Positions 27,546 to 41,157 are shown, numbered from the stretch's first letter. The stretch: 64,000 bases of DNA from Pontibacter ruber (GCF_023630205.1 NZ_JALPRR010000002.1:300899-364898); one strand, 5' to 3'. Notes: a model not told the origin generated them from the sequence alone. Numbers and translations are program-made.

Positions 27546-28025
27546 CTAACGCTCATTCCCTGCATCTTCAAAAACGACCATTTCCTTCCACAGCCGGTCA
27601 AACTCCACCAGGTAGGCCGTAACAAGGTCGCGCTGGTTGGTAACGAGCAGGTTTTCGTGGTTATAATTGGCGGCGCTGCGGGTCCAGTTGTAGCTGCCGG
27701 TCAGCAGGGCCTCGTTGTCGATGAGGGCGAACTTGTGGTGCATGTGGTTTTGTGTCACGTCTACCCGCGTCTCGATGCCTGCTGCTGCCAGCTCCCGGAT
27801 ATCCGATCCTTTGTCGAAGAGCTTTTCGTTATCGGTCAGGAGCTTTACCTCAATTCCGGATGCATGTGCCTGTTTTATAGCAGCCGTGATGCGGTCGTCG
27901 CTGATGGTAAACACGCAGATCTTGAGCGAGTACTCGGCAGTTGTGATGCTGTCGAGTATGGCGTTGAGGCAGTCGTTGCCCGGGCTGAAGCAGGCACGGT
28001 TGATTTGTTTGTTTAGTTCTTTCAA
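27546..28025 (-). CDS. phospholipase-D-family (HKD) nuclease, Nuc-like
   Basis: 159 aa. HHKFALIDNEALLTGSYNWTRSA contains the HxK(x4)D...N HKD motif of single-domain PLD nucleases. The called start is a TTG with no upstream in-frame ATG. Confidence 0.65.
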   Translation of the reverse strand: MKELNKQINRACFSPGNDCLNAILDSITTAEYSLKICVFTISDDRITAAIKQAHASGIEVKLLTDNEKLFDKGSDIRELAAAGIETRVDVTQNHMHHKFALIDNEALLTGSYNWTRSAANYNHENLLVTNQRDLVTAYLVEFDRLWKEMVVFEDAGNER

Positions 28026-28234
28026 AGGAAGAGAGATTATGTTCAGGGAATATACGCTTACGGTCTATTGCTGCAAGGCCAGTTCCGGACGGGCGCAGTG
28101 CTTTTAAAGGTATTGTGCTGAACCCACTTCCACCCGGAATCCGGCCATACTTACAGCAGTTTTGCCCGTAGAGTACTTACCGACGCTTTAACAGGAAAAC
28201 CGGCACCAGGAGCGGAGGGAAGCAGGCTTACCTA

Positions 28235-29308
28235 TTATACCTTGTAGCAGACCGCGTTGATGTTCATACCGGCACCCACGGAAGCAAACAGGATAATATC
28301 ACCCTGGTTGAGCTCGTGCTTCTCGTCGCGGCCTTTGCGCACAATGTCGTACAGGGTAGGTACGGTGGCAACAGAGCTATTGCCCAGGTAGTGGATGCTC
28401 ATCGGCATAATGTCTTCCGGAATATCGCGTCTGCCATAGAGCTTGTAGAGCGCCTGGATCATACCCTCGTCCATTTTCTCGTTGGCCTGGTGGATGAACA
28501 CTTTTTTTACGTCGCTGATGTCCACGCCGCACTTGTCGAGGCAGGCCTTCATGGCTTCCGGCACGAGTTTGATGGCATACTCGTATACCTTACGGCCTTT
28601 CATTTTGATGTAGCGCACGCGCGGGTCACCGTCCGGCATGTACGACTTGTTCATGTTGATGTAATACGCCTCGTCCACGCTGTGGCTTAAGGCACAACTG
28701 GCCAGTATGCCGCTGCCTCCGTCGGGTATCTCCTGGTATTCCAGTACTGAGGCACCGGCCCCGTCGCTGAAGATCATGCTATCGCGGTCATACAGGTCAA
28801 TTACGCGCGAGAGGGTTTCTGCACCGATTACGAGCGCCTTCCTGGCCATACCGGCTTTAAAGAAAGCATCTGCCTGAATCATGCCCTGCACCCACCCCGG
28901 ACAGCCGAACAGAATATCGTAGGCTACGCAGTGCGGGCTTTTTATTTTGAGATTATGCTTTACGCGGCTTGCCAGAGCAGGTACGGCATCAGATTGTATC
29001 GTTCCCTCGATGACATTGCCAAAGTTATGCGCCACGATGATCATGTCCAGTGTCTCCGGATCGATGCCACTGTCGCGGATGGCTTCTTCGGCTGCCAGCG
29101 TGGCAATATCGGAGGTGGTGAGGTGCGGGGCTACATAGCGGCGTTCGGCAATACCGGTTATCTTCTTAAACTTCTCCACCACCACCTGGGGGCAAACATT
29201 GATCGGGTTGTTGTCTTCGGTGTAAAAATTATGTTCGGTAAAATCCTGGTTGGTTTTGACCTCGGTAGGGATGTAACTGCCTGTTCCTGTAATAACGGTT
29301 TGCCGCAT
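28235..29308 (-). CDS. 3-oxoacyl-ACP synthase III (FabH-like KAS III) with an atypical N-terminal insertion
   Basis: 357 aa. Cys-His-Asn triad in LFGCPGW, FIHQANEKM and YLGNSSVATVP. An extra segment EHNFYTEDNNPINVCPQVVVEKFKK is not present in canonical FabH. Confidence 0.75.
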   Translation of the reverse strand: MRQTVITGTGSYIPTEVKTNQDFTEHNFYTEDNNPINVCPQVVVEKFKKITGIAERRYVAPHLTTSDIATLAAEEAIRDSGIDPETLDMIIVAHNFGNVIEGTIQSDAVPALASRVKHNLKIKSPHCVAYDILFGCPGWVQGMIQADAFFKAGMARKALVIGAETLSRVIDLYDRDSMIFSDGAGASVLEYQEIPDGGSGILASCALSHSVDEAYYINMNKSYMPDGDPRVRYIKMKGRKVYEYAIKLVPEAMKACLDKCGVDISDVKKVFIHQANEKMDEGMIQALYKLYGRRDIPEDIMPMSIHYLGNSSVATVPTLYDIVRKGRDEKHELNQGDIILFASVGAGMNINAVCYKV

Positions 29309-29477
29309 GATGTCTGGGTGCTAAATTGAAAGATAGTAAAGAGCCTGGTGTGAAATCACTTCTTCAACCATCAATATATTGAGTATGAAAATACATATCA
29401 AGTGAAAAGCGTAAGTATATGTTTATACACCAGTTTTATGATATCCCTTGTTAGCACAAGATAATAATGCAGGGCTC

Positions 29478-30128
29478 TCAGGTGGTATAGCTGCCGATCA
29501 CTTTTGCCAGCTCCTGCAAAAACAGGTGAATATGATAGCCATCCGCCAGTGCGTGATGCAGGCCGATGCTGATAGGAAGATATACCTGTTCACCACGCAT
29601 TTCAATTTTTCCATACCCGATCTTCGGCACGCCCGGGTCCTGCCGGTTCGCAGCGGAAGCATGCTCCATCCCTTTAAAAGTAAACCAGGGCAAGGAAGTC
29701 ATGTGCAACAGGTCATTGCCCTGGTAGCCGTTAAACAACTTCCTGCTCTTTTTTACTTCTGCTATAACCTGTGCGCCGTTCCCGCAAAAATCTTCCAGCT
29801 TTTCTATAAAAGGAAAGTGGGTGAAGGCAATCTGCATGTCATCTTTTAGGATGGTCGTAGACATGTCCAGTCCGCTGTAGCGGATCACCTGGCCGTTCTC
29901 AATGCGTAGCAGGAAGTTCCCGGTGTTGCGGGCAGCCTGGGTGGTAGCATGCATATAGCCAAGCGACACCGGCAGGCCCTGCCGCTTACAATAACGGTAA
30001 AGCGGCGTGATGTCTGCTTCGGTATGAACATTAAAAAAAGGCTGTGTGAAGGTGCTGAAAAAGCGATATGTCTCCTCCCGTTCCCAGCCTTCGATAGGTA
30101 TAATTTCTTTGGTGTAGCGTGTCTGCAT
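29478..30128 (-). CDS. chloramphenicol-acetyltransferase (CAT)-family O-acyltransferase
   Basis: The ORF track starts at a TTG at 30227. The ATG at 30128 gives MQTRYTKEIIPIEGWEREETYRFFSTF, a CAT-like N-terminus. Catalytic motif HHALADGYH matches CAT HHAVCDGFH. Confidence 0.72.
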   Translation of the reverse strand: MQTRYTKEIIPIEGWEREETYRFFSTFTQPFFNVHTEADITPLYRYCKRQGLPVSLGYMHATTQAARNTGNFLLRIENGQVIRYSGLDMSTTILKDDMQIAFTHFPFIEKLEDFCGNGAQVIAEVKKSRKLFNGYQGNDLLHMTSLPWFTFKGMEHASAANRQDPGVPKIGYGKIEMRGEQVYLPISIGLHHALADGYHIHLFLQELAKVIGSYTT

Positions 30129-30300
30129 AAGTATAAAAGCAGGTATAACCTGTAGCCAGCCTGTACGTGGCGGCTTTGAGGCGGCAAAGATAGTTGATTG
30201 TTGCAACTTAATTTTTCGCTCAGGCAAGTGTCATATATGCTTTGTTATAGATATTTTATTATATTTAAAGCAGATAATACATTTTGTACCACCTTTGCCT

Positions 30301-30927
30301 ATGAACGAACTTCTACAAGCTGCTATTTCTTCCGTTAACATCATTCCCACCGCCCTTTTGGTCTTTGTGCTGCTGTATTGGGTGGCGGTCATCTTTGGCT
30401 TCCTGGACCTCGATTTCTTTGATGTAGAGGTGGAGACCGGAGTAGATGCGGATGGCGTTTCTTCTGTTTCCTGGCTTAACTCCGTGCTGGCTTTCTTCAA
30501 CCTGGGCAAGGTGCCGTTCATGGTGTTTCTGACTTTTCTGGCGCTTCCGTTCTGGGTAATTTCTATACTTGCCAACTACTACCTGAACAGCAATTACGAG
30601 CTGCTGGGTTTGCTATACTTACTGCCTTCTTTTTTGGCGGCGCTTTTTGTGTCCAGGTTCCTCACCATGCCTTTTATCAGGCTTTTTGCCGCTATGGAAA
30701 AAGAGCACGAACCTGCTGCCAGCATCATTGGCCAGCTGTGTACCGTTACGCTGCCGGCTAACCCTACCGAGCTGGGACAGGCTGCCATTAAGACCTCGGG
30801 TGCTCCGCTTTTGCTGAACGTGAAAACCACCGAAGGCGCTGCCGTGCAGAAAGGCGAGACCGCGCTCGTAGTCGAGTACAATGCTGAAAACAAATTTTAC
30901 CTCATACAACCTTACCAAACCATTTAA
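30301..30927 (+). CDS. YqiJ/NfeD-like inner-membrane protein (DUF1449; TM segments plus C-terminal OB-fold)
   Basis: The ORF track starts at a TTG at 30295; the ATG is at 30301. Three predicted transmembrane segments. The C-terminal beta-rich segment QLCTVTLPAN...APLLLNVKTTEGAAVQKGETALVVEY resembles the NfeD OB-fold. It lies 6 nt upstream of the flotillin gene, as in E. coli yqiJK. Confidence 0.6.
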   Translation: MNELLQAAISSVNIIPTALLVFVLLYWVAVIFGFLDLDFFDVEVETGVDADGVSSVSWLNSVLAFFNLGKVPFMVFLTFLALPFWVISILANYYLNSNYELLGLLYLLPSFLAALFVSRFLTMPFIRLFAAMEKEHEPAASIIGQLCTVTLPANPTELGQAAIKTSGAPLLLNVKTTEGAAVQKGETALVVEYNAENKFYLIQPYQTI

Positions 30928-30932
30928 TTCAC

Positions 30933-33068
30933 ATGCTAGCATCTTTATCCTGGTCTATCGTCATCATCATGGCGGTAGTCGTGATTGGCTTGATTGCCAT
31001 TGTTGTCAAAATGTACCAGAAGGCTATCCAGGGCGAGGCGCTGGTGCGTACCGGTCTGGGCGATACGAAAGTGTCCTTCTCAGGTATCTTCGTGATCCCG
31101 ATCATCCACAAACTGGAGGTCATGGACATCACCCTCAAAACGATTGTGATCTCCAGAACAGGTTCCGAAGGCCTGATCTGTAAGGATAACCTGCGTGCCG
31201 ATATCAAGGTGAACTTCTTTCTGCGCGTAAACAAAACGCCGGAAGACGTGATCCAGGTAGCACAGTCGATTGGCTGTAAGCGTGCATCCGACCACTCGGC
31301 ACTGGAAAGCCTCTTCGATGCCAAATTCTCTGAGGCCCTGAAGACCGTAGGCAAGCATTTCGACTTTGTGGACCTGTACCAGAGCCGCGACGACTTCAAG
31401 CGCCAGATCCTGCAGACCATTGGCACCGACCTGAACGGCTACATCCTCGACGACTGCGCCATCGATTACCTGGAGCAGACGCCTATCCAGAACCTGAATG
31501 AGAACAACATCCTCGACGCCGAAGGTATCAAGAAGATCATCGACCTGACCGCCAAGCAGAAGATACAGGCCAACCTGATCGAGCGCGAGAAGCAGAAGAC
31601 CATCAAGAAGCAGGACGTAGAGGCGCAGGAGACCATCCTGGAGCTTGAGAAGCAATTGGCCGAAAACGAAGAAAAGCAGAAGCGTGAGATTGCTAACATC
31701 AAGTCGCGTGAGTTTGCCGAGATGGAGAAAGTACGTCACGAAGAGCGCCTGAAGGCCGAGAAGGCAAGAATTGCCACGGACGAGGAAGTGAAGATCGCCG
31801 AGCAGAACAAAGATCGCCAGATCCTGGTGGCCGAGCGCAGCAAACAGCGTACCGACGCCATCGAAACAGAGCGCGTAGAGCAGGCAAGGTTACTGGAGGC
31901 TAATGAGAAAGAGCGTATCGTGTCGCTGGCGCAGATCGAGAAGGAGAAAGCCATCGAAGAAGAGCGCAAAAACATACAGGGTATCATCCGTGAGCGCGTG
32001 ACCGTGGAGAAAGCCGTAGTGGAAGAGGAAGAGAAGATCAAGGACACCAAGGCTTTTGCTGAGGCAGAACGAACGAAGGCTGTTGCAATTAAGAATGCGG
32101 AGCGTGAAGCGGAAGAATCACTGGTAAAAGAAATTAAAAGTGCTGAGGCAGCGCGTCAGGCAGCGGAGTTCCGTGCCAAGCAAATGCTGATTGATGCCGA
32201 GGCAGAGCAGGTGTCTTCGAACAACCGGGCGCAGGCCATCAAGACCATGGCAGAGGCTGAGGCAGCACAAGCGGCAGCGATCGGTTTGTCCGAGGCACAG
32301 GTGATGGAGGCCAAAGCCCATGCCCGTCAGAAAGAAGGGGAAGCGGAGGCGCTGGTGATCAAAGCCAAAGCCAACGCACAGGCCGAAGCCGACGAGAAAC
32401 TGGGTATGGTAACCGCCAAAGTGACCAAAGAGAAAGGTATAGCCGAAGCGACTGTGGTAGAGAACATGGCATCAGCCGAGGAGAAGCGTGGTCTGGCAGA
32501 GGCCCGTGTGATCGGAGAGAAGTTCACGGTAGACGCCAAAGGTATAGAGGAGAAAGCGGAAGCCATGCGCAAACTCGATGGCGTGGGCAAAGAGCACGAG
32601 GAGTTCAAGTTGCGCCTGGAGAAAGACAAAGCCATCGAACTGGCCCAGATCAACATCCAGAAGGATATTGCCGGTGCCCAGGCCGAGGTGATCTCCGAGG
32701 CCCTGAAGGCAGCGAAGATCGACATCGTGGGCGGCGAGACCATGTTCTTCGACCAGATCGTGGGCTCCATCACCAAAGGCAAGCAGGTGGACCGACTGGT
32801 AAGCAACAGTGAAGTGCTGAACACCGTGAAGGATACCTTCTTCCAGCCAAATGGCGACGGCCACGTGGATTTCCGCGAGAACCTGCAGCGCTTCGTTAAT
32901 CAGTTCGGTTTGAAAACAGAAGATGTGCGTAACCTGAGCGTATCAGCCCTACTTTTCAAGATGATGCAGAGCGGCACGGATGAAAGCACGCTGAATACCC
33001 TGAAGCAGCTGACCTCTACGGCCACTGCCATGGGGATTGCGGACAAGCCGTTCATTTCCCTGAACTAA
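30933..33068 (+). CDS. flotillin-like SPFH/band-7 protein with long E/A/K-rich coiled coil (YqiK/FloT-like)
   Basis: 711 aa. N-terminal TM segment, then an SPFH domain (VRTGLGDTKVSFSGIFVIPIIHKLEVMDITLKTIV...), then ~350 aa of EA-rich heptad repeats typical of flotillins. Confidence 0.85.
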   Translation: MLASLSWSIVIIMAVVVIGLIAIVVKMYQKAIQGEALVRTGLGDTKVSFSGIFVIPIIHKLEVMDITLKTIVISRTGSEGLICKDNLRADIKVNFFLRVNKTPEDVIQVAQSIGCKRASDHSALESLFDAKFSEALKTVGKHFDFVDLYQSRDDFKRQILQTIGTDLNGYILDDCAIDYLEQTPIQNLNENNILDAEGIKKIIDLTAKQKIQANLIEREKQKTIKKQDVEAQETILELEKQLAENEEKQKREIANIKSREFAEMEKVRHEERLKAEKARIATDEEVKIAEQNKDRQILVAERSKQRTDAIETERVEQARLLEANEKERIVSLAQIEKEKAIEEERKNIQGIIRERVTVEKAVVEEEEKIKDTKAFAEAERTKAVAIKNAEREAEESLVKEIKSAEAARQAAEFRAKQMLIDAEAEQVSSNNRAQAIKTMAEAEAAQAAAIGLSEAQVMEAKAHARQKEGEAEALVIKAKANAQAEADEKLGMVTAKVTKEKGIAEATVVENMASAEEKRGLAEARVIGEKFTVDAKGIEEKAEAMRKLDGVGKEHEEFKLRLEKDKAIELAQINIQKDIAGAQAEVISEALKAAKIDIVGGETMFFDQIVGSITKGKQVDRLVSNSEVLNTVKDTFFQPNGDGHVDFRENLQRFVNQFGLKTEDVRNLSVSALLFKMMQSGTDESTLNTLKQLTSTATAMGIADKPFISLN

Positions 33069-33080
33069 CCTCACCCCAAA

Positions 33081-33112
33081 CCCCTCTCCTAAGAACAGGA
33101 GAGGGGTTTTTT
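33081..33112 (+). terminator. intrinsic terminator after the flotillin gene
   Basis: cccctctcct aagaac aggagagggg followed by TTTTTT. Confidence 0.8.
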
Positions 33113-33272
33113 ATACTTGCGCCAGCCATTAGTACAGAATAAGCTATGGAAACAGTTAAGGTTGGAATAGTGTAGTTGGAAGTGATTTAAAATAATATTT
33201 ACAGTGACTCTAAAGATTTTAGGAATATCGTCACTAGGTAGTTGTAATTGCCAAGATAAAAAAGACTCAGTA

Positions 33273-33815
33273 ATGGATGATATGCTCAAATTTTTTGAAG
33301 ATTTTCAAAACAGAACTATCTACAAAAAACTGACACCGGAGATATTAAAAGATATACCTAATGACCAGTTAGAGCAAACGATTTACGATAACATCTATGA
33401 AATCATTGGATACGACTATGAAAATGAATTCCAAAATGTCCAGAAATTAACAAAAGGACAACAGGCATTTGTATCCACTTGGTTAGTAGAGGTAGAAGTC
33501 AACAATGGAGGGTTCAATCAGTTCTACTTCAATTCCAGCGGACAGTACGCATATATGGCGGTTGATGGATTTGAAACTGTTGGTGCTTTAAAGTTTGCTG
33601 AACTTATGAAAGAAGCAAATAAAATATACGCCTCTATCAAAAGCGATCTCGAAAAATTTGATGATAGCACGCTGGAGAGCTTTAGCGAATCCTACAAAGA
33701 AAACCCTCTAAATAACCTCGATGACCAATTTTATGATCAAGACAAAGCAGAGCCTTTGTGGAAATTTAGAGTGAAGTATATTAGAGAGAATATTGATCAA
33801 TTTATTACGAAGTAA
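33273..33815 (+). CDS. DMP19 / DUF4375-like protein
   Basis: An alternative GTG start at 33204 adds 23 aa. The motif WLVEVEVNNGGFNQFYFNSSGQYAYMAVDGFETVGALKFAEL matches the NNGGF-QF-NS-G signature I associate with the DUF4375/DMP19 family. The gene is about 36% GC, against over 52% for its neighbours. Confidence 0.5.
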   Translation: MDDMLKFFEDFQNRTIYKKLTPEILKDIPNDQLEQTIYDNIYEIIGYDYENEFQNVQKLTKGQQAFVSTWLVEVEVNNGGFNQFYFNSSGQYAYMAVDGFETVGALKFAELMKEANKIYASIKSDLEKFDDSTLESFSESYKENPLNNLDDQFYDQDKAEPLWKFRVKYIRENIDQFITK

Positions 33816-33911
33816 AACTACTGTTGTCAGTTAGGCATAGTTATACCTCGCCAAGTGAGCACATAAGCACACAGACTTTTACCCATCATTAATTCCTAAT
33901 CCTCCACCCAC

Positions 33912-36900
33912 ATGGAAGATACCAATACCGCTACTACCACAGCTGCCGAGAACGTGCAGTTGGAGGGGGGCACTTATGAAATCTTACGGAACCGTCTGCA
34001 GAAGAGCGGGGCAGAACTGCGTACGCAACTGGAGCAGCTAAACCAGGAGCGGAAGAGCGTGTTCGGAGCGATCGAGACGAAGCTGATCACCACCGAGCGC
34101 ATTACCACCGAGAACAACTGCGTGCCTTGGGACATGGTGCCCGTGGGCTATACCTTGCTCTTTGGCTACAACGTATACCTGGGCCTGAAGTCGGAGGTGG
34201 AGCTGTCGGATGTGTTTGGCGTCTATACCTACGAGGGCCACAGCTTCCACCAACAGCCGCTCGATTTGCTGCAGGACAAGACCTTTAAGGACGACTTTCA
34301 GAAGCTCTACAAATACTACAAGAACACCCAGTTCGTCAAGTTTGCGCACATCGGCAACTACCTGTACATGGTGTTCCGGGTGGGCAAGGGCGTCAACGAT
34401 ATAAAGACCTTTAAGTGGTTGCTCAAAGGCGACACGATCACCTACATCGACAACCGCAGCGACCACGAGTATGTGTTCCCCAACCAGCACGATTTCAGCT
34501 GGAAGCGCACCACCCGCGAGGCACAGCGCAAAGGCAAACACCCGCACGTGTCCATCGAGGACAAGGTGTTCGTGGAGACGGTCGGTGGTGACCTCACCAT
34601 CAAGGTAGAGGACAACACCGACTCGGGGCGTGGTATTTACTCGGAAGAGGTGGAGGACAAGGACCAGACGCTCGACGACTCGGAGATTTACTACGCCGTG
34701 GTGGGCAACATCATCGTCCTGAAGATACGTCCCTACCGCGAGAACAACTACCGCTACTTCGTCTACAATGTGAAGCTGCAGGAGGCCCGCCGCATTGACG
34801 CGCTGGAGCACAGTTGTGTGCTGTTGCCGGACGGGCAGGGCATTATCTACGCCTATGGGTATTACCTGCAGACGGGCGAGTTCAAGCAATTTGACAACAA
34901 CCTGCAGGACATGCTGTTTGAGAAGCGCATCACTTCCCCGAACGGCGAGGATTTCCTGTATGTGTTCTACAACAAGGAGTCGGGCATCTACCAGTTGCTG
35001 TCCTATAACCTGATCACGCAGCAAATCGAGACTCCGATTATCTGCCACGGCTACGCCATTTACGAGAACGGCGAGTTGTGCTATTTCCGGGCCGACGAAG
35101 AGGCGCAGAAGCACCATGCCATCCAGATCTGGCAGACGCCTTACATCGGGCCGAACTTTGTGATACCGGTTACGCAGGAGTCCTACCTCTACAAGATCGG
35201 CAACAAGGACATTGTGCGGGCCATGGCCGAGAGCAACGAGGTGCTGTCTCTCTTGCACAAGGACGATTCCTATGCCAACCTATACCTCGACCTGATCAAG
35301 AAAACCACCGATGTACTGGATTCTTACCACTGGCTGAACCGGGCGGAGACCTACAATCTGGCGGGGCCGGTTGCGGCGATCCGGCAGACGGCCACGGCGG
35401 CGGTGGAGGAGTACGAGAAGGTGCTCAGCATTAAGAAAAATACGCAGGCACAGATAGGTCAGGTGCTGGGGCAGGCCGATACGCTGATCCAGACGCTGAA
35501 GCACAAGAAGGCCGAGAGCATCAACGACTATGTGAAGTATCTGGCCGATTTGCGGGGTATACGCGGCGAGGTGATCTCGCTGAAGGAGCTGCGCTATACC
35601 GACCTGCCGACCATTGAAAAATACGAAGCGCAGCTGCAGCAATTTGCGCAGGATACCGCCAACGGAGCCGTAGAATTCCTGTTGCAGCCGAACGCGCTGG
35701 CGCCTTACGAGAAGAAGGTAAAGGAGATCAACACCGCCATTGTAGGTATAGCCAAAGTGGTGGAAGCCGACGCAACCGACAAGGAAATTGCGGCGGTGTC
35801 ATCGGAACTGGAAATGCTGATCGATGTGGTGAGCAACCTCAAGATCGAAGACGCCACCCAGACCACCCGCATCATCGATACGATCTCGGCTATTTACGCC
35901 ACCTTCAACCAGACCAAAGCCACCCTGCGCCGCAAGCGTAAAGAGTTGTTGAGTCAGGAAGGCAAGGCTGAATTCAACTCCCAGATCAAGCTGATCAGCC
36001 AGAGTGTGGTCAACTACCTCGACGTGTCGGACTCGCCGCAGAAGTGCGAAGAGTACCTGGCCAAGCTGATGGTACAGTTGGAGGAACTCGAGGGCCGCTT
36101 CCCAGATTTTGACGAGTTCATTGAGCAGCTCACGGTCAAGCGGGAGGAGATCTACAGCGCTTTTGAATCGAAGAAAGTGCAGCTGCAGGAAGCGCAGAAC
36201 AAGCGTGCCAACAGCCTGCAACAGGCAGCAGACCGCATCCTGAAAGCGGTGCAGAACCGGGCCAGCAAGCTGACTTCGGTGAGCGAGATCAACGGCTACT
36301 TCGCCTCTGATCTGATGATCGAGAAGGTGCGGAGCACGGTGGAGGAGTTGCTCAAGATCGGTGATACGGTAAAAGCCGATACCATCCAGAGTCGCCTCAA
36401 AACCCTGAAGGAAGACGCCGTGCGCCAGCTGAAGGACAAGCAGGAGCTGTTTGTGGACGGCGCCAACATCCTGAAGTTTGGCAAGCACCAGTTCACGGTC
36501 AACACCCAACCGCTGGAGCTGAGCGTAGTGCACCGCGATGACGCCATGTATTATCACCTCACCGGCACCAGTTTTTTCGAGAAGATCACCGATGACCAGT
36601 TTCTGAGCTACCGCCCCGTATGGGAGCAGACGCTGGTATCGGAGAACCATCAGGTATACCGTGCCGAGTATCTGGCTTTTAAAGTGCTGGAAGCAGCGCA
36701 GGATAAAGGTATAGCCACGCAGCAAAACGAGAACAGCCTGCGCTACCTGAGCATCGACGAACTGCACAAGCTCACCGAGGCCGAGCTGACCGACTACATG
36801 AACAAGTTCATGGCCGCGCGCTTCAACGAGGGCTACATGAAAGGCGTGCATGACCACGACGCGGCTCTGATCTTAGGTGCACTGATCCGCTTGATTAAAA

Positions 36901-38879
36901 CGGCCGACTTGCTTCGCTATACCTCCACAGACAGGGCTTGCGCGCAGCTGTACTGGAAGGTGTTCGCACCAGAGTTGAAAAAGAAAGTGCTCCAACATCA
37001 ACTTCAAGGTATAAGCGCCATCCTGCAGGTCTTCCCCGACACGCACGAGTTTGACGACGTAAAAGCAGATCTGCAGCAGGAGCTCTATATTTTCCAGCAA
37101 GAGACCGGGCTGTGCAAAGAAGCCGGTACAGCCGAGGCAGGCGCGTACCTGTTCTACGAATTAACAAGAGGCAACACCTTTGTGATCGACAGCCAGGCTG
37201 ATGTTTTGTACAACGGCTTTAAAAACTTTCTGACAGAGCGGCGTGTGCTGGAGCGTTTTAAGGAATCAGTAAAAGCGCTGCAGGGGAATATGGCGCACCA
37301 ATTCGAGCTGATACAGCACTGGCTGAAGGCCTACATCGCGCAGGCCGGGCAGCACGACAAAACCGAATTTGTGGCCGAGGTGGCGGTACTGTTGCTTACC
37401 GATAGCTATAACACGCAGCAGGTAGTGCACACGGTGCTGAAGGAGAGTCTACAAGGTATGCAGGGCGCACACCAGCAGGTGCAGGGCCAGCAATACCAGC
37501 TGCACTACCACGGCTTCATGCGCCGCCTCCGCAACTATACTTCCAGCACGGCTACGGCCTTTACAGCTTTCACGGAGCTTAAAAAGAACCTGACGCAGCA
37601 GGCCGAGCAACAGCTTCGCCTGAACGAATTCAAGCCGCGGGTGCTGTCTTCGTTTGTGCGCAACAAACTGATCGACCAGGTATACCTGCCGCTGATTGGC
37701 GCCAATCTGGCCAAGCAGATCGGCACGGCAGGGGAGGCCAAACGCACCGACCTGATGGGCATGCTTTTGCTGATCTCACCTCCGGGCTATGGCAAGACCA
37801 CCATCATGGAGTACATCGCCAACCGCCTGGGCATTATTTTCATGAAGATCAACGGTCCCGCTATCGGGCACCAGGTCACGGCGCTGGACCCGAAAGAGGC
37901 ACCTAATGCCGCTGCTCGTGAGGAGCTGGAGAAGCTGAACCTGTCCTTTGAGATGGGCGATAACGTGATGATCTACCTTGACGACATCCAGCACTGTAAT
38001 CCCGAGTTTTTGCAGAAGTTCATCTCCCTTTGCGACGCGCAGCGTAAGATCGAAGGCGTGTACAAAGGCCGCAGCAAGACTTATGATTTCCGTGGCAAAA
38101 AGGTATGTGTAGTAATGGCCGGTAACCCCTATACCGAAACAGGCGAGAAGTTCCGCATTCCGGACATGCTCGCCAACCGCGCCGACATCTACAACCTCGG
38201 CGACATCATCGACGACACCGAAGACGTGTTCAAACTGAGCTACATTGAAAACTCCCTCACCTTCAACACTGTGCTGGCCAAGCTGGCGGCGAAGAGTCAG
38301 AAAGACATTTATGCACTCATCCATCTGGCCGAAACAGGCAACAGCGAAGGGCTGGAGTTTGAGGGCAACCACTCGGCAGCCGAACTCAACGAGTATGTGC
38401 TGGTGCTGAAGAAATTGCTTAAGATCCAGGACGTGATCCTGAAAGTGAACCTGGAGTATATCCGCTCGGCGGCGCAGGCTGACGAGTACCGCACCGAGCC
38501 GGCCTTTAAGCTGCAGGGCTCTTACCGCAACATGAACAAGCTGGCTGAGAAGGTCATGCCAATTATGAACGACCAGGAACTGCAAACGCTCATCCTGTCA
38601 CACTACGAGGCCGAGTCGCAGACGCTCACTTCCGGTGCCGAAGCCAACATGCTCAAATTCAAGCAGCTCATCGGCATCATGACCGAGGCTGAGGCACAGC
38701 GCTGGGAAGACATCAAAGCCACCTTCGTGCGCAACAACAAGCTCAAAGGCTTCGGCGGCAACAACCAGGTAGGGCAGGTACTCACTCAAATGGAAAACAT
38801 ATCCAGCGGACTTGAAGGTATAAAACAGGTGCTAAGCCAATTCAAGCCAAGCAGGCTGGAAGCGGCGGAGGAGATTTAA
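33912..38879 (+). CDS. giant (1655 aa) protein with C-terminal AAA_5 (MoxR/McrB/dynein-type) ATPase domain; function unknown
   Basis: Uninterrupted 4968-nt ORF with a real ATG and a terminator downstream. AAA module motifs: Walker A LISPPGYGKTT (about aa 1285), Walker B VMIYLDDIQH, sensor and arginine region VCVVMAGNPYTETGEKFRIPDMLANRAD. The preceding ~1250 aa are mostly helical or coiled-coil, with a beta-rich segment around aa 250-400. Confidence 0.8.
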   Translation: MEDTNTATTTAAENVQLEGGTYEILRNRLQKSGAELRTQLEQLNQERKSVFGAIETKLITTERITTENNCVPWDMVPVGYTLLFGYNVYLGLKSEVELSDVFGVYTYEGHSFHQQPLDLLQDKTFKDDFQKLYKYYKNTQFVKFAHIGNYLYMVFRVGKGVNDIKTFKWLLKGDTITYIDNRSDHEYVFPNQHDFSWKRTTREAQRKGKHPHVSIEDKVFVETVGGDLTIKVEDNTDSGRGIYSEEVEDKDQTLDDSEIYYAVVGNIIVLKIRPYRENNYRYFVYNVKLQEARRIDALEHSCVLLPDGQGIIYAYGYYLQTGEFKQFDNNLQDMLFEKRITSPNGEDFLYVFYNKESGIYQLLSYNLITQQIETPIICHGYAIYENGELCYFRADEEAQKHHAIQIWQTPYIGPNFVIPVTQESYLYKIGNKDIVRAMAESNEVLSLLHKDDSYANLYLDLIKKTTDVLDSYHWLNRAETYNLAGPVAAIRQTATAAVEEYEKVLSIKKNTQAQIGQVLGQADTLIQTLKHKKAESINDYVKYLADLRGIRGEVISLKELRYTDLPTIEKYEAQLQQFAQDTANGAVEFLLQPNALAPYEKKVKEINTAIVGIAKVVEADATDKEIAAVSSELEMLIDVVSNLKIEDATQTTRIIDTISAIYATFNQTKATLRRKRKELLSQEGKAEFNSQIKLISQSVVNYLDVSDSPQKCEEYLAKLMVQLEELEGRFPDFDEFIEQLTVKREEIYSAFESKKVQLQEAQNKRANSLQQAADRILKAVQNRASKLTSVSEINGYFASDLMIEKVRSTVEELLKIGDTVKADTIQSRLKTLKEDAVRQLKDKQELFVDGANILKFGKHQFTVNTQPLELSVVHRDDAMYYHLTGTSFFEKITDDQFLSYRPVWEQTLVSENHQVYRAEYLAFKVLEAAQDKGIATQQNENSLRYLSIDELHKLTEAELTDYMNKFMAARFNEGYMKGVHDHDAALILGALIRLIKTADLLRYTSTDRACAQLYWKVFAPELKKKVLQHQLQGISAILQVFPDTHEFDDVKADLQQELYIFQQETGLCKEAGTAEAGAYLFYELTRGNTFVIDSQADVLYNGFKNFLTERRVLERFKESVKALQGNMAHQFELIQHWLKAYIAQAGQHDKTEFVAEVAVLLLTDSYNTQQVVHTVLKESLQGMQGAHQQVQGQQYQLHYHGFMRRLRNYTSSTATAFTAFTELKKNLTQQAEQQLRLNEFKPRVLSSFVRNKLIDQVYLPLIGANLAKQIGTAGEAKRTDLMGMLLLISPPGYGKTTIMEYIANRLGIIFMKINGPAIGHQVTALDPKEAPNAAAREELEKLNLSFEMGDNVMIYLDDIQHCNPEFLQKFISLCDAQRKIEGVYKGRSKTYDFRGKKVCVVMAGNPYTETGEKFRIPDMLANRADIYNLGDIIDDTEDVFKLSYIENSLTFNTVLAKLAAKSQKDIYALIHLAETGNSEGLEFEGNHSAAELNEYVLVLKKLLKIQDVILKVNLEYIRSAAQADEYRTEPAFKLQGSYRNMNKLAEKVMPIMNDQELQTLILSHYEAESQTLTSGAEANMLKFKQLIGIMTEAEAQRWEDIKATFVRNNKLKGFGGNNQVGQVLTQMENISSGLEGIKQVLSQFKPSRLEAAEEI

Positions 38880-38964
38880 AGTATAGCTGAAAGTATAAAA
38901 AGCCCCTGCAAGTATAAACCAGCAGGGGCTTTTTATACTTTCGTGATTTTCAGCTTTATACTTA
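38879..38964. repeat. cluster of five copies of the abundant 9-mer AAGTATAAA/TTTATACTT around the terminator of the giant gene
   Basis: aagtatagc, aagtataaa (38891), aagtataaa (38910, in the hairpin loop), tttatactt (38932), tttatactt (38955). Confidence 0.8.
38901..38936 (+). terminator. intrinsic terminator after the giant ATPase gene
   Basis: agcccctgc [aagtataaacca] gcaggggct followed by TTTTT. The loop itself is the abundant 9-mer. Confidence 0.75.
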
Positions 38965-39597
38965 CCTCAGGAATTTAACGGAAAGTAAGATAACATACAT
39001 CCAGGAGGAGTAGAGCAAGGTATAACCAAGGCCGTAGAAAGCAGCCTTTGAGAACCTGCCTCTGCACCTTGGGCTGTTCTTTAGCACCAGCCGTACGGCT
39101 CTGAAGAAGACCCAGTACAGCATAGCCGCTAGCAACAGAACAAAGGCCCAGATCACTGTTTCGAATAAGAACAGGAAGGCAATAAACGCAAGGGTTACTG
39201 CTATCCAGGCAAAAACAGCTGCTGCAAATTCATCTGCGCCATCTCCAAGATCTAAATCAGGTAACATACTTCCTTTACCTCCTGATTTTCCAGCTATATC
39301 AGGTACATCCGCTACGGCCTCCGTGGCCGTATTATTCAGCCATTTTATTTTCCTGGTAAGATCTCCAACATCATCCTTTAACTTTATGCCATAGTAAAGG
39401 CTAGAGGTCAGGAAGCCAAAGAATATAGTACAAAGTATAGAGAGTGAAATGGTAGCGTTATCCAGAATACTTCTGCTGGAGGTAAATCCCGTCAGGTAAA
39501 CTGTAAGGATCGTGCCGGTCATGATCAGTAGGGCGCTGATGAAGATCCATTTAGCAGGTATAAGCTTAATCCCGGGCCTTGGCAGAGTTGGCATCAT
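38962..39597 (-). CDS. hypothetical integral membrane protein
   Basis: The ORF track starts at a TTG; in-frame ATGs at aa 5-6 give MMPTLPRPG. Four predicted transmembrane helices and no recognised family. Confidence 0.5.
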   Translation of the reverse strand: MMPTLPRPGIKLIPAKWIFISALLIMTGTILTVYLTGFTSSRSILDNATISLSILCTIFFGFLTSSLYYGIKLKDDVGDLTRKIKWLNNTATEAVADVPDIAGKSGGKGSMLPDLDLGDGADEFAAAVFAWIAVTLAFIAFLFLFETVIWAFVLLLAAMLYWVFFRAVRLVLKNSPRCRGRFSKAAFYGLGYTLLYSSWMYVILLSVKFLR

Positions 39598-39749
39598 CAG
39601 GCAAATCAAGAGTCAGAAAAGAGGAAATTATGCTGATGAATATACTGAATCTTATATATTATTGAAAGTATAAATGAGATAAAAGTGAAAGAACAAAAAA
39701 GGCTGGATCTTTACCAGAGCCAGCCTTTTATTATCCTTTGTGTTATACT

Positions 39750-40247
39750 TTAAAATCCCGTTTCGTCGGCGCTTGGGCCGTAGCTGCCGGGTATTGGAAT
39801 ATCGAGGAGGCGGAGGTACACGCCCAGTTGGGCACGGTGGTGGATGATCTGCGACAGCGCCATCCGGATCACTTCGGCTTTGGTATAGGTGTTATAGATC
39901 TGGTCGCCATTCCGTAATACCCATGGTTGTTCCAGCTGATCTTCTGTGGCTCGGGCTAATCCGGATTTGCCATCGGCATACGTCCTCTCAAAATAAGCTA
40001 CCAGTTCTTTGGTGTTGGCAATTTTCTCTGGCTGGTAAGGGTTTTGCGCAAAGTCCAGCTCGTCGGTGGTGAGCGCCATACTTACCCAGGAAGGCAGCTC
40101 CGCCACGTGCGTTACCAGGCGGATCATGGTCATACTTTTCTGGTGAGGTTGCCAGTCATACTTGTCGTCAGGTACACGCTCCAGCATTTTACGGGTAGTC
40201 TGGGCTTCCTGCTCCAGCTCTTTTGAGAACATTTCGATTACCGTCAT
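39750..40247 (-). CDS. DinB/YfiT-like (DinB_2) metal-dependent hydrolase-fold protein
   Basis: 165 aa. MTVIEMFSKELEQEAQTTRKMLERVPDDKYDWQPH ... IIHHRAQLGVYLRL shows the His triad spacing typical of DinB_2. Confidence 0.72.
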   Translation of the reverse strand: MTVIEMFSKELEQEAQTTRKMLERVPDDKYDWQPHQKSMTMIRLVTHVAELPSWVSMALTTDELDFAQNPYQPEKIANTKELVAYFERTYADGKSGLARATEDQLEQPWVLRNGDQIYNTYTKAEVIRMALSQIIHHRAQLGVYLRLLDIPIPGSYGPSADETGF

Positions 40248-40389
40248 AGTTTTAAGCTTTAGTTTAAGACAAAGAAACCAGGACCCACTGACAACCCTAT
40301 GGCAGTGTAACTTTGTATGACAAAATTTTTTCAGTGATCTATACTCAGTTTATTTTTTCACCAGAGGAGGTATAGAAATGTATGGCCTC

Positions 40390-40827
40390 TTAAAATGACT
40401 GTCTTTGTGCCTCTGCATCAGCTAAGTTATTTCTGCGGCGCAAAAGTTTGCCTATACTCCTGATCGAAAGCAGGGCAACTATGCCACCAACGGCAATAGT
40501 TTTCACCAGATTCTGCGGATCGTGTATCGAACGGAACCTGGTTTGTCCGTCTTTGATTTCGATGTATCCAACTGGCTTGATGGCCACACCGCCACCGCCT
40601 CCTGTTCCTTCTTCGCCGGCTTTGCTGCCTGTACCTCCACCGAACCCATACATGGCCTTAGCGGCTGGTATAACAGTTACCCCACCTCGCTCCACTGGCT
40701 CACCATAAATAGTGGCAGCATTTGCTGAAATACCTAATCTTTGTGCCAGCTGCTCAATAAAGGAAGCTCTTTTGTTACTTTCCTGCATGTCCATCTTGCC
40801 TGTTTTTTTATATGGTTTTACTTTCAA
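40390..40827 (-). CDS. YtfJ/GerW-family protein
   Basis: 145 aa. IYGEPVERGGVTVIPAAKAMYGFGGGTGS...GGGGGVAIKPVGYIEIKDGQTRF matches the Spore_YtfJ family pattern. Confidence 0.6.
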   Translation of the reverse strand: MKVKPYKKTGKMDMQESNKRASFIEQLAQRLGISANAATIYGEPVERGGVTVIPAAKAMYGFGGGTGSKAGEEGTGGGGGVAIKPVGYIEIKDGQTRFRSIHDPQNLVKTIAVGGIVALLSIRSIGKLLRRRNNLADAEAQRQSF

Positions 40828-41157
40828 ATCATCAACGCTTCTCTACATTTCAGGAGAAAACCTTTTTGATAAGCTCAAAATTTAATTAGTACTATTTAAA
40901 TATTTTGTACGAATAAAGATGTTCAACGTGTACGAAAAGCTACGAAGAGATAGGTATGGGAGGAGAAATCGCTGTCAATCAACTAAAGTAACAAGTGAAA
41001 AGTGGGGGAGGTGCTGTTGTATACTTGCTTTGGTTGTTCCTGCGCGTGGAGTAACCTGAATTTATACTTGATGTAACATGATTAAAGCTAAAGAACGTGC
41101 ACGTATGTTCAGGATGTTTCCCTTCTTTGCAGCAAGTGCTTTATTTATATAAACGAA

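Follow-up and report, generated by a model that had tools for sequence, protein, structure and literature searches.

The NfeD-like, flotillin and giant ATPase genes of Pontibacter ruber: conserved pairing across bacterial phyla and membership of a PspA-associated operon class

In Escherichia coli yqiJK and Bacillus subtilis yuaF-floT (yuaG), a small multi-transmembrane (TM) gene of the NfeD type is tightly coupled to a gene for an anchored SPFH protein with a coiled coil rich in glutamate and alanine (EA-rich), and to our knowledge neither operon contains a giant ATPase. Here we analyze a locus of similar organization in a 64,000-nt window—the whole stretch of DNA under study—from Pontibacter ruber (Hymenobacteraceae, Cytophagales), whose + strand carries, in order, a gene for a 3-TM YqiJ/YuaF-type NfeD-like protein, a gene for a 711-aa flotillin-like SPFH protein, a terminator hairpin, an AT-rich DMP19-family gene and a gene for a 1655-aa ATPase (Table 1). 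The last three products have exact database matches, named flotillin family protein, DMP19 family protein and DNA repair ATPase, respectively. An earlier note on this DNA, made from the sequence alone, had called open reading frames (ORFs) for the NfeD-like protein, the flotillin and the ATPase, all of which are present, and had suggested that flotillin and ATPase are functionally linked in a membrane-organizing or defense-type module unlike any described system.

The operon has in fact been described. Ravi, Anantharaman, Aravind, Gennaro and colleagues (mSystems 2024, PMC11237479; bioRxiv 2020) surveyed the PspA envelope-stress system by comparative genomics, and the passages concerned report an operon combining a CesT/Tir-PspA pair with a YqiJ/YuaF 3-TM protein, a band-7/flotillin protein and an ATPase composed of beta-propeller, coiled-coil and AAA+ regions. 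They also report an "abbreviated" form without PspA, the presence of PLD in some Proteobacteria, and an example from Dokdonia donghaensis (Table S3 of PMC11237479) whose gene order is the same as that of the window, so that the pairing cannot be called new. For the operon as a whole they propose sub-membrane assembly and dynamics; these passages amount to one paragraph, in which no ATPase clade assignment, co-occurrence statistics or experiment is given. Set against this description, the P. ruber locus is alike in the architectures and order of its three products, which match the D. donghaensis example, in that its relatives carry CesT_Tir_1 and PspA_IM30 genes upstream, and in that the Vibrio orthologue is accompanied by a PLD/HKD gene. 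It differs in lacking the CesT/Tir-PspA dyad of the full operon form, and in having an apparently foreign DMP19 gene and a terminator that split flotillin from ATPase. Because architecture, order, the CesT/Tir-PspA context of relatives and the PLD variant all match, we assign the P. ruber locus, on sequence comparison, to the abbreviated form of this operon class. The class is computationally described and experimentally untouched, and the P. ruber locus is an ordinary member of it rather than a new system.

Two further systems offer more distant parallels. In HflK/C-FtsH and in the prohibitin/m-AAA protease pair, as here, an SPFH scaffold is coupled genetically or physically to an AAA+ machine at the cytoplasmic face; FtsH, however, is a membrane-anchored classical-clade AAA+ zinc protease, whereas the window ATPase is soluble, is placed by modeling in the MoxR class, lacks a protease domain, and is ~2.5 times larger, with a propeller and long helices. 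PspA and Vipp1 are bacterial homologues of ESCRT-III, and the resemblance to ESCRT-III/Vps4 lies in the linkage, in many relatives, of a gene for the membrane-binding polymer PspA to an AAA+ ATPase gene, suggesting ATP-driven remodeling. Vps4, by comparison, belongs to the classical AAA+ clade, is small and carries an MIT domain, and the tightest partner in the window's module is flotillin, not PspA.

Pairing of flotillin and ATPase genes across bacteria

Relatives of the ATPase were examined at 80 genomic loci (57-96% identity; Cytophagales, Bacteroidales, Flavobacteriales and Sphingobacteriales), at 10 plasmid-collection loci (Pseudomonas pQBR103, Proteus, Vibrio, Photobacterium, Halomonas, two Streptomyces, Nonomuraea and two Deinococcus), and at 4 more loci from the most distant clade (27% identity) and a Myxococcota metagenome-assembled genome (MAG). 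In 87 of the 90 evaluable loci, the ATPase gene is directly preceded by an orthologous, co-oriented flotillin gene. Where more than 2.6 kb of upstream DNA was available, this was so at 82 of 83 loci (phmmer E 1e-82 to 0), with a YqiJ-like orthologue immediately 5' of the flotillin in at least 75 of the 83 (phmmer), and at 5 further loci the flotillin is visible but truncated by the contig edge. The arrangement extends to all 10 non-Bacteroidota plasmid-collection loci, to the 27%-identity clade and to the Myxococcota MAG, so that flotillin-ATPase pairing is found in Bacteroidota, Gammaproteobacteria, Actinomycetota, Deinococcota and Myxococcota as well as in the distant clade. The flanking genes (KAS III, CAT, DinB), by contrast, are conserved only within Pontibacter. 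The three-gene module is thus conserved in at least five bacterial phyla. The earlier note had named this neighborhood analysis beforehand as the check that might refute the flotillin/NfeD-ATPase link it proposed; the outcome was the opposite, with flotillin almost always adjoining the ATPase homologues, and that link is upheld.

The converse search, starting from flotillin, gave the same picture. Among 72,556 plasmid records, tblastn with the window flotillin returned 320 matches, of which the top 13 (at least 272 bits, with alignments extending to the C-terminus) coincide exactly with the 13 ATPase-bearing records; the remaining 307 reach at most 135 bits, align only over residues 26-398 and come from records without the ATPase. 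Because co-occurrence in the plasmid collection is reciprocal (13/13), this flotillin is a dedicated subfamily that is co-inherited with the ATPase. Against E. coli plasmid flotillins, for instance, it aligns only over residues 26-394 at ~31% identity, as a member of a separate subfamily, and it has an extra C-terminal tail. A mirror-tree correlation of pairwise identities between flotillin and ATPase (r = 0.95 overall, 0.29 below 50% identity) was not used as evidence because shared phylogeny dominates it.

Further upstream, 46 Bacteroidota loci, among them those of Pontibacter chinhatensis and Pontibacter sp. MBLB2868, have a co-oriented PspA-like gene directly 5' of the YqiJ-like gene; PspA is present in only 1 of 14 non-Bacteroidota loci. 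The ORF next upstream of PspA, checked in two loci (L041 and L007), encodes a CesT_Tir_1 protein, as it does in pQBR103; matches to the two families lie at E 1e-52 to 1e-56 for CesT_Tir_1 and 1e-39 to 1e-45 for PspA_IM30. The P. ruber locus has lost this CesT/Tir-PspA pair, which stands ahead of the module in many of its relatives.

Other neighbors recur in more distant hosts. On pQBR103 of P. fluorescens SBW25 (L081/L095, 84437-97641), the module ends one long co-oriented cluster with the order YjfI(CesT/Tir)-PspA-rhomboid-DUF2491-DUF350-DUF1190-glutathionylspermidine (GSP)-synthase-like-YqiJ-like-SPFH-giant ATPase, in which the set from rhomboid through DUF2491, DUF350 and DUF1190 to the GSP-synthase-like gene is arranged like E. 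coli yjfIJKLMC. In Vibrio campbellii (L085, 11834-13612), a PLD gene (PLDc_2, E 2e-30) abuts the ATPase stop codon and is followed by TelA; in Proteus mirabilis (L084, 1681-3461), genes for LemA and a TPM-domain protein lie upstream and are divergently transcribed; and one Streptomyces locus has TerD nearby. Collectively, the recurrent neighbors are envelope-stress or sub-membrane genes. As a separate observation, both PSP operon classes of Ravi et al. are brought together in the pQBR103 cluster, on a plasmid that is well studied and experimentally tractable.

Domain architecture of the three proteins

Pfam assigns residues 35-473 of the giant ATPase to DUF3686 (PF12458, "ATPase involved in DNA repair"; E 2.2e-192) and residues 594-678 to DUF7902 (PF25472; E 6.6e-28), with weak AAA (E 7.6e-7) and AAA_5 matches over residues 1285-1408, and this combination of PF12458, PF25472 and a C-terminal AAA region places the protein in the DUF3686 family. 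More than 5,800 database proteins match it at E ≤1e-10, and an exhaustive search yielded 982 clusters of homologues (50%-identity representatives), whose full-length members measure 1,500-2,000 aa and extend down to 27% identity. Two irregular family entries were noted along the way: the ATPase ORF of one locus (L080) is broken by a frameshift or assembly error, and one ATPase annotation in Pontibacter sp. HSC-14F20 (P0025) is cut to 1218 aa, though the locus (L002) encodes the full length.

Confident AlphaFold2 (AF2) models were obtained with a 41-sequence alignment (24-94% identity), with predicted local distance difference test (pLDDT) values of 82.8 for residues 1-1200 and 85.1 for residues 1180-1655. 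From the N-terminus, the models contain a helix, a beta-propeller, ~750 residues of long helices, the AAA+ module and a C-terminal helical domain. The propeller (residues ~57-410) comprises ~28 strands with pLDDT mostly between 85 and 94 (AF2/DSSP), and its Foldseek matches include WD40/DCAF1, tricorn, prolyl oligopeptidase, IFT-A and clathrin terminal-domain structures; the matches of propeller plus long helical region to IFT-A and clathrin heavy chain are weak. Inside the helical region, DSSP of the AF2 model delineates a small beta domain at residues ~853-891. For the N-terminal 1250 aa, for which the earlier note had proposed structure prediction, the models give a propeller and helices; the note missed that Pfam already lists this region as DUF3686 and DUF7902.

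By structure comparison, the AAA+ module lies nearer to the MoxR class than to other clades, with CbbQ and NorQ as its closest structural relatives, and on these models we place it in the MoxR class, in agreement with the MoxR/dynein-type AAA_5 module called from the sequence. A classical-clade assignment, suggested by the Pfam AAA match and by PDB phmmer matches to p97/SPATA5, was rejected by the same comparison. The Walker A motif (S1289-PPGYGKT-1296), the sensor-1 asparagine (N1405) and the arginines of the ANRAD (R1423) and QGSYR (R1539) motifs are invariant across the 41 aligned sequences, R1539 sitting in the lid beyond the interval 37722-38351. Walker B reads YLDD (D1357-D1358, window positions 37980-37985) rather than hhhhDE, and it too is invariant in these sequences despite identities of 24-94%. 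MoxR ATPases normally work with a VWA partner. Compared with the MoxR chaperones CbbQ, NorQ and RavA and with the giant relatives midasin and dynein, the window ATPase has no VWA/MIDAS partner gene, carries a single AAA+ module C-terminal to a 1270-residue extension, and has DD in place of DE in Walker B. Set against typical MoxR systems, both the missing VWA partner and the DD Walker B, itself uncommon among MoxR-class ATPases, are deviations that may point to slow or regulated ATP hydrolysis.

The 711-aa protein has the architecture of the flotillin family, namely an N-terminal anchor (a single TM segment within residues 1-33), an SPFH/Band_7 domain (~36-215) and a long EA-rich coiled coil (~216-600), followed by a subfamily-specific C-terminal tail (601-711). 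Over residues 216-600 (~385 residues), the composition is 19% Glu, 18% Ala and 12.5% Lys. Searched by itself, the N-terminal 220-aa segment matches Band_7 (PF01145; E 2.5e-12, 47.6 bits against a cut-off of 23.6), which places the protein in the SPFH/Band_7 superfamily. The full-length sequence gave no Pfam match even at E ≤10 and no PDB sequence match, because the EA-rich coiled coil triggers the composition/bias filter; this is not evidence against an SPFH domain, but a trap in annotating this subfamily, whose coiled coil appears to suppress detection. The Pfam Flot model (PF15975) had no match with residues 200-400 or 350-560 at E ≤0.1, nor with the C-terminal 160 aa at E ≤1.

The NfeD-like protein combines three hydrophobic TM regions with a beta-rich, OB-like C-terminal domain, as read from hydropathy and sequence, the beta-rich character of the last ~70 aa being judged from sequence only. 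It matches Pfam YqiJ_N (PF21001) at E 1.5e-4 and 22.3 bits, just below the 23-bit cut-off; the NfeD OB-fold model PF01957 has no match in the window protein and only a weak one in the Deinococcus orthologue (E 0.0024). The ORF has an alternative TTG start at 30295, and its stop codon is separated from the flotillin start by 5 nt, so that the tight coupling of the two genes described in the earlier note holds, with its gap of 6 nt corrected by one. The third-position G/C bias that the note saw in both flotillin and ATPase genes is likewise present: at 0.705 and 0.769, respectively, their G+C contents at third codon positions (GC3) are the two highest among window ORFs of at least 300 aa.

The slot between flotillin and ATPase

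Downstream of flotillin in the window is a hairpin with a 13-bp stem followed by a T-run (dG -23.3, z -5.0), corresponding to the terminator previously placed at 33081. Of the 11 closest Pontibacter loci, 10 have a terminator-like hairpin after flotillin irrespective of the cargo that comes next, and the ~50 nt holding it are 84-95% identical in most of these loci. Among Pontibacter, slot conservation is restricted to the two flanks, 33069-~33120 (the terminator) and ~33872-33911 (the last 35-40 nt before the ATPase start). The DMP19-family gene between them has a GC content of 34.5% and a GC3 of 0.36 vs. 0.70-0.77 in its neighbors, and because these values fall so far below those of the surrounding genes it was probably acquired horizontally. 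No direct repeats flank the insertion in the window, and the DMP19 copies at three other loci (L005-L007) are only 74-77% identical to it at the DNA level.

A survey of the slot (window, L001-L011, L031, L014-L019 and L026-L075) revealed a length of 0.5-2.4 kb in Hymenobacteraceae, with all Pfam- or PADLOC-assigned cargo on the + strand and differing by species. The cargo comprises DMP19 (window and L005-L007), DUF2321, DUF3800, DUF3592, a GIY-YIG protein (match to the defense gene PD-T4-3, E 6e-47) and an Abi_alpha protein (match to PDC-S47, E 2e-58); a DUF559 Vsr-like endonuclease gene occupies the slot in 15 Hymenobacter/Aureivirga loci. The DMP19 gene is therefore an insertion into the module and not a conserved component, and the slot looks like an integration hotspot for single-gene defense or selfish cassettes. 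What had been taken as signs of two separate units, namely a gap of 0.85 kb with a terminator and an AT-rich gene, reflects a lineage-specific insertion slot; outside Hymenobacteraceae, the flotillin-ATPase gap measures -4 to 170 nt.

A GC-rich hairpin plus T-run was detected by a simple scan between flotillin and ATPase in 33 of 86 loci, even across some short gaps such as those of pQBR103 (L081, 53 nt), L090 (60 nt), Photobacterium, L017 and L047, and this hairpin may be an attenuator that sets flotillin:ATPase stoichiometry. A sigma-70 promoter scan performed at chance level, the sigma-70 consensus not applying to Bacteroidota, and an Rfam scan of positions 28000-41000 found no match.

Around the module in the window, genes for a CAT-family acetyltransferase and a KAS III-type ketoacyl-ACP synthase (Pfam) lie upstream of the YqiJ-like gene on the opposite strand. 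At the other end, the ATPase gene shares its bidirectional terminator with a convergent 215-aa ORF (38962-39609), for which Pfam gave no significant match and which, among the surveyed loci, is conserved in L006 alone.

Table 1 Features of the NfeD-like/flotillin/ATPase locus, in window coordinates
Feature	Position	Strand	Basis
YqiJ/YuaF-type short NfeD-like membrane protein, 208 aa	30301..30927	+	ORF, hydropathy, borderline Pfam YqiJ_N
Flotillin-like SPFH protein, 711 aa, WP_250429188.1	30933..33068	+	ORF, Band_7, hydropathy, NCBI name
Intrinsic terminator or attenuator hairpin directly 3' of flotillin stop	33078..33109	+	13-bp stem and T-run
Lineage-specific variable cargo slot	33121..33871	+	Conserved only at flanks among Pontibacter
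DMP19-family coding sequence, WP_250429189.1	33273..33815	+	NCBI annotation; Pfam PF14300 E 2e-25
Giant soluble ATPase, 1655 aa, WP_250429190.1 "DNA repair ATPase"	33912..38879	+	ORF, Pfam, AF2 model
Beta-propeller domain, residues ~57-410, core of DUF3686	34080..35141	+	AF2 model, Foldseek
Helical/coiled-coil region, residues ~411-1170, including DUF7902 at 594-678	35142..37421	+	DSSP of AF2 model; Pfam
Predicted MoxR-class AAA+ module, residues ~1271-1480	37722..38351	+	Structure comparison, motifs
Bidirectional terminator hairpin, A-run and T-run at its sides	38902..38929	.	RNA fold dG -42.9 kcal/mol, z -7.6

Proposed mechanism and competing explanations

Gene content, domain architecture, AAA+ clade, conserved synteny and co-occurrence, and recurrent stress-gene neighbors all come from direct observation, and from them we favor, with moderate confidence, a reading in which the three genes encode one membrane machine of the cytoplasmic face, belonging to the PspA-linked envelope-stress repertoire, whose ATPase remodels the scaffold. 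The 3-TM YqiJ/YuaF-type NfeD protein and the dedicated flotillin would build a membrane-anchored SPFH scaffold or cage, and the soluble 1655-aa ATPase would be its energy-consuming partner. Through its propeller and long helical arms the ATPase would bind the flotillin assembly and, in loci that have it, the ESCRT-III-like PspA polymer; its C-terminal MoxR-class AAA+ ring would spend ATP on building, opening or taking apart the flotillin (and PspA) lattice when the envelope is under stress, in parallel to Vps4 acting on ESCRT-III and with an echo of FtsH inside HflK/C cages. All components would face the cytoplasm or be anchored on its side of the membrane, and the predicted topology counts in favor of this: the ATPase has neither a TM segment nor a signal peptide, the flotillin has one N-terminal TM segment, and the YqiJ-like protein has three. 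The physical interaction of these parts, the target of the ATPase, the direction of remodeling and the physiological trigger are steps that we infer. Passages in the literature offer related precedents, in that PspA in B. subtilis is connected with the membrane through an SPFH protein (PMC8581546), S. aureus FloA-NfeD stabilizes unfolded proteins without ATP (PMC11222466; summarized in PMC13086221), and HflK/C cages enclose the AAA+ protease FtsH (PMC13220708).

Several points weigh against remodeling of the scaffold by the ATPase. Three Bacteroidota MAG loci (L060, L021 and L070) have an ATPase gene without an adjacent flotillin, and the 64-kb P. ruber window contains no PspA-like ORF. In P. 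ruber, where flotillin and ATPase are set apart by a strong terminator and an inserted gene, the two may not be co-transcribed. From its sequence, the DD Walker B motif could make the protein a slow, switch-like ATPase rather than a processive remodeler, and no VWA domain was found in the neighboring genes of the window or of annotated orthologous loci. Literature searches with the ATPase family names, flotillin, MoxR and PspA found no experimental work on the ATPase family. As a side observation on the three MAG loci, the genes upstream of their ATPase encode an aldo-keto reductase, a DUF389 protein and an unassigned 495-aa ORF.

The alternative that survives best, though we regard it as somewhat unlikely, is that the flotillin/NfeD cage is an ATP-independent holdase and that the MoxR-class ATPase extracts, refolds or matures its clients instead of remodeling the scaffold, the propeller then being a client- or adaptor-binding domain. 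MoxR-class AAA+ proteins are maturation or remodeling chaperones for specific protein complexes. That CbbQ and NorQ are the closest structural relatives of the AAA+ module speaks for such client work, as do the ATP-free stabilization of unfolded proteins by S. aureus FloA-NfeD (PMC11222466) and the enclosure of FtsH by HflK/C (PMC13220708); however, no client gene is conserved in the neighborhood, and no protease or VWA/MIDAS partner is present in the neighborhoods examined. Strict one-to-one pairing with a single flotillin subfamily is as compatible with scaffold recognition as with client work, and for this reason the data do not separate the two.

A more ambitious version of scaffold remodeling, which we consider quite unlikely, would have flotillin, the ESCRT-III-like PspA and the ATPase form a coat-like, ATP-driven membrane-remodeling or membrane-repair machine whose operon, in Hymenobacteraceae, doubles as a landing pad for phage-defense cassettes (PD-T4-3, Abi_alpha, DUF559 and DMP19); such a landing pad may couple cassette expression to the membrane-damage response.

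Whether the module itself is a membrane-associated anti-phage or abortive-infection system, the defense-type role raised in the earlier note, is a separate matter, and we judge it very unlikely. Its patchy multi-phylum distribution, which includes megaplasmids, would suit such a role, as would the PD-T4-3, PDC-S47/Abi_alpha, DUF559 and GIY-YIG nuclease genes held in the Hymenobacteraceae gap, but the slot with this cargo resembles a hotspot 3' of the terminator, outside the conserved unit. The name "phage shock" is historical. PADLOC-DB 2.0 gave only a weak generic-AAA match for the ATPase (mad8, E 1.9e-4) and none for the other two proteins, so that no convincing match was obtained; Pfam and NCBIfam detected no nuclease, protease, toxin or sensor domain in the triad, and hence no effector; and 50,697 phage records contained no triad homologue. 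Neighbors outside Hymenobacteraceae are stress or ion-homeostasis genes rather than defense islands, and the high GC3 of both large genes is consistent with long residence, not recent acquisition.

It is extremely improbable that the giant protein acts as an ATPase in DNA repair, as its annotation has it, with no functional relation to flotillin. The legacy names (PF12458 "ATPase involved in DNA repair" and NCBI "DNA repair ATPase") suggest it, as do weak RuvB_N matches, but the latter (E 3e-5, below cut-off) cover only generic P-loop residues 1270-1320, and structure places the AAA+ module with MoxR, not RuvB. No DNA-binding, DNA-processing or nuclease domain was found in the ATPase by Pfam, NCBIfam, the AF2 model or fold search, which leaves the database name with no support here; the conserved nearby gene is flotillin, not a DNA-repair gene, and literature searches found no paper supporting the name. 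Finally, a chance adjacency of two independent transcription units in Pontibacter, to which the separate terminators and intervening AT-rich gene of the window might point, is refuted by the neighborhood analysis, with its synteny over five named phyla and down to 27% identity, its reciprocal plasmid co-occurrence and its non-conserved flanks.

Beyond the passages of Ravi et al. that treat this operon, our analysis adds the near-obligate reciprocal pairing with a dedicated flotillin subfamily, the predicted MoxR class of the ATPase with its DD Walker B, the equation of the ATPase with DUF3686/DUF7902, the misleading "DNA repair" name, and the defense-gene slot of Hymenobacteraceae. The earlier interpretation is thereby partly supported: the link between flotillin and ATPase is borne out, and the system is neither undescribed nor defense-like. 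The family is large, occurring in Streptomyces, Proteus, Vibrio, Deinococcus and on plasmid pQBR103, and is mis-named "DNA repair ATPase" throughout the databases, so that correcting the name has annotation value in itself. We know of no energy-consuming partner for bacterial flotillins. Their mechanistic role is described as unsettled in the passages bearing on it (PMC11222466), and a strictly co-inherited giant ATPase of the MoxR class provides a concrete, testable handle on flotillin mechanism, as it may serve the flotillin scaffold in the way that Vps4 serves ESCRT-III or FtsH serves HflK/C.

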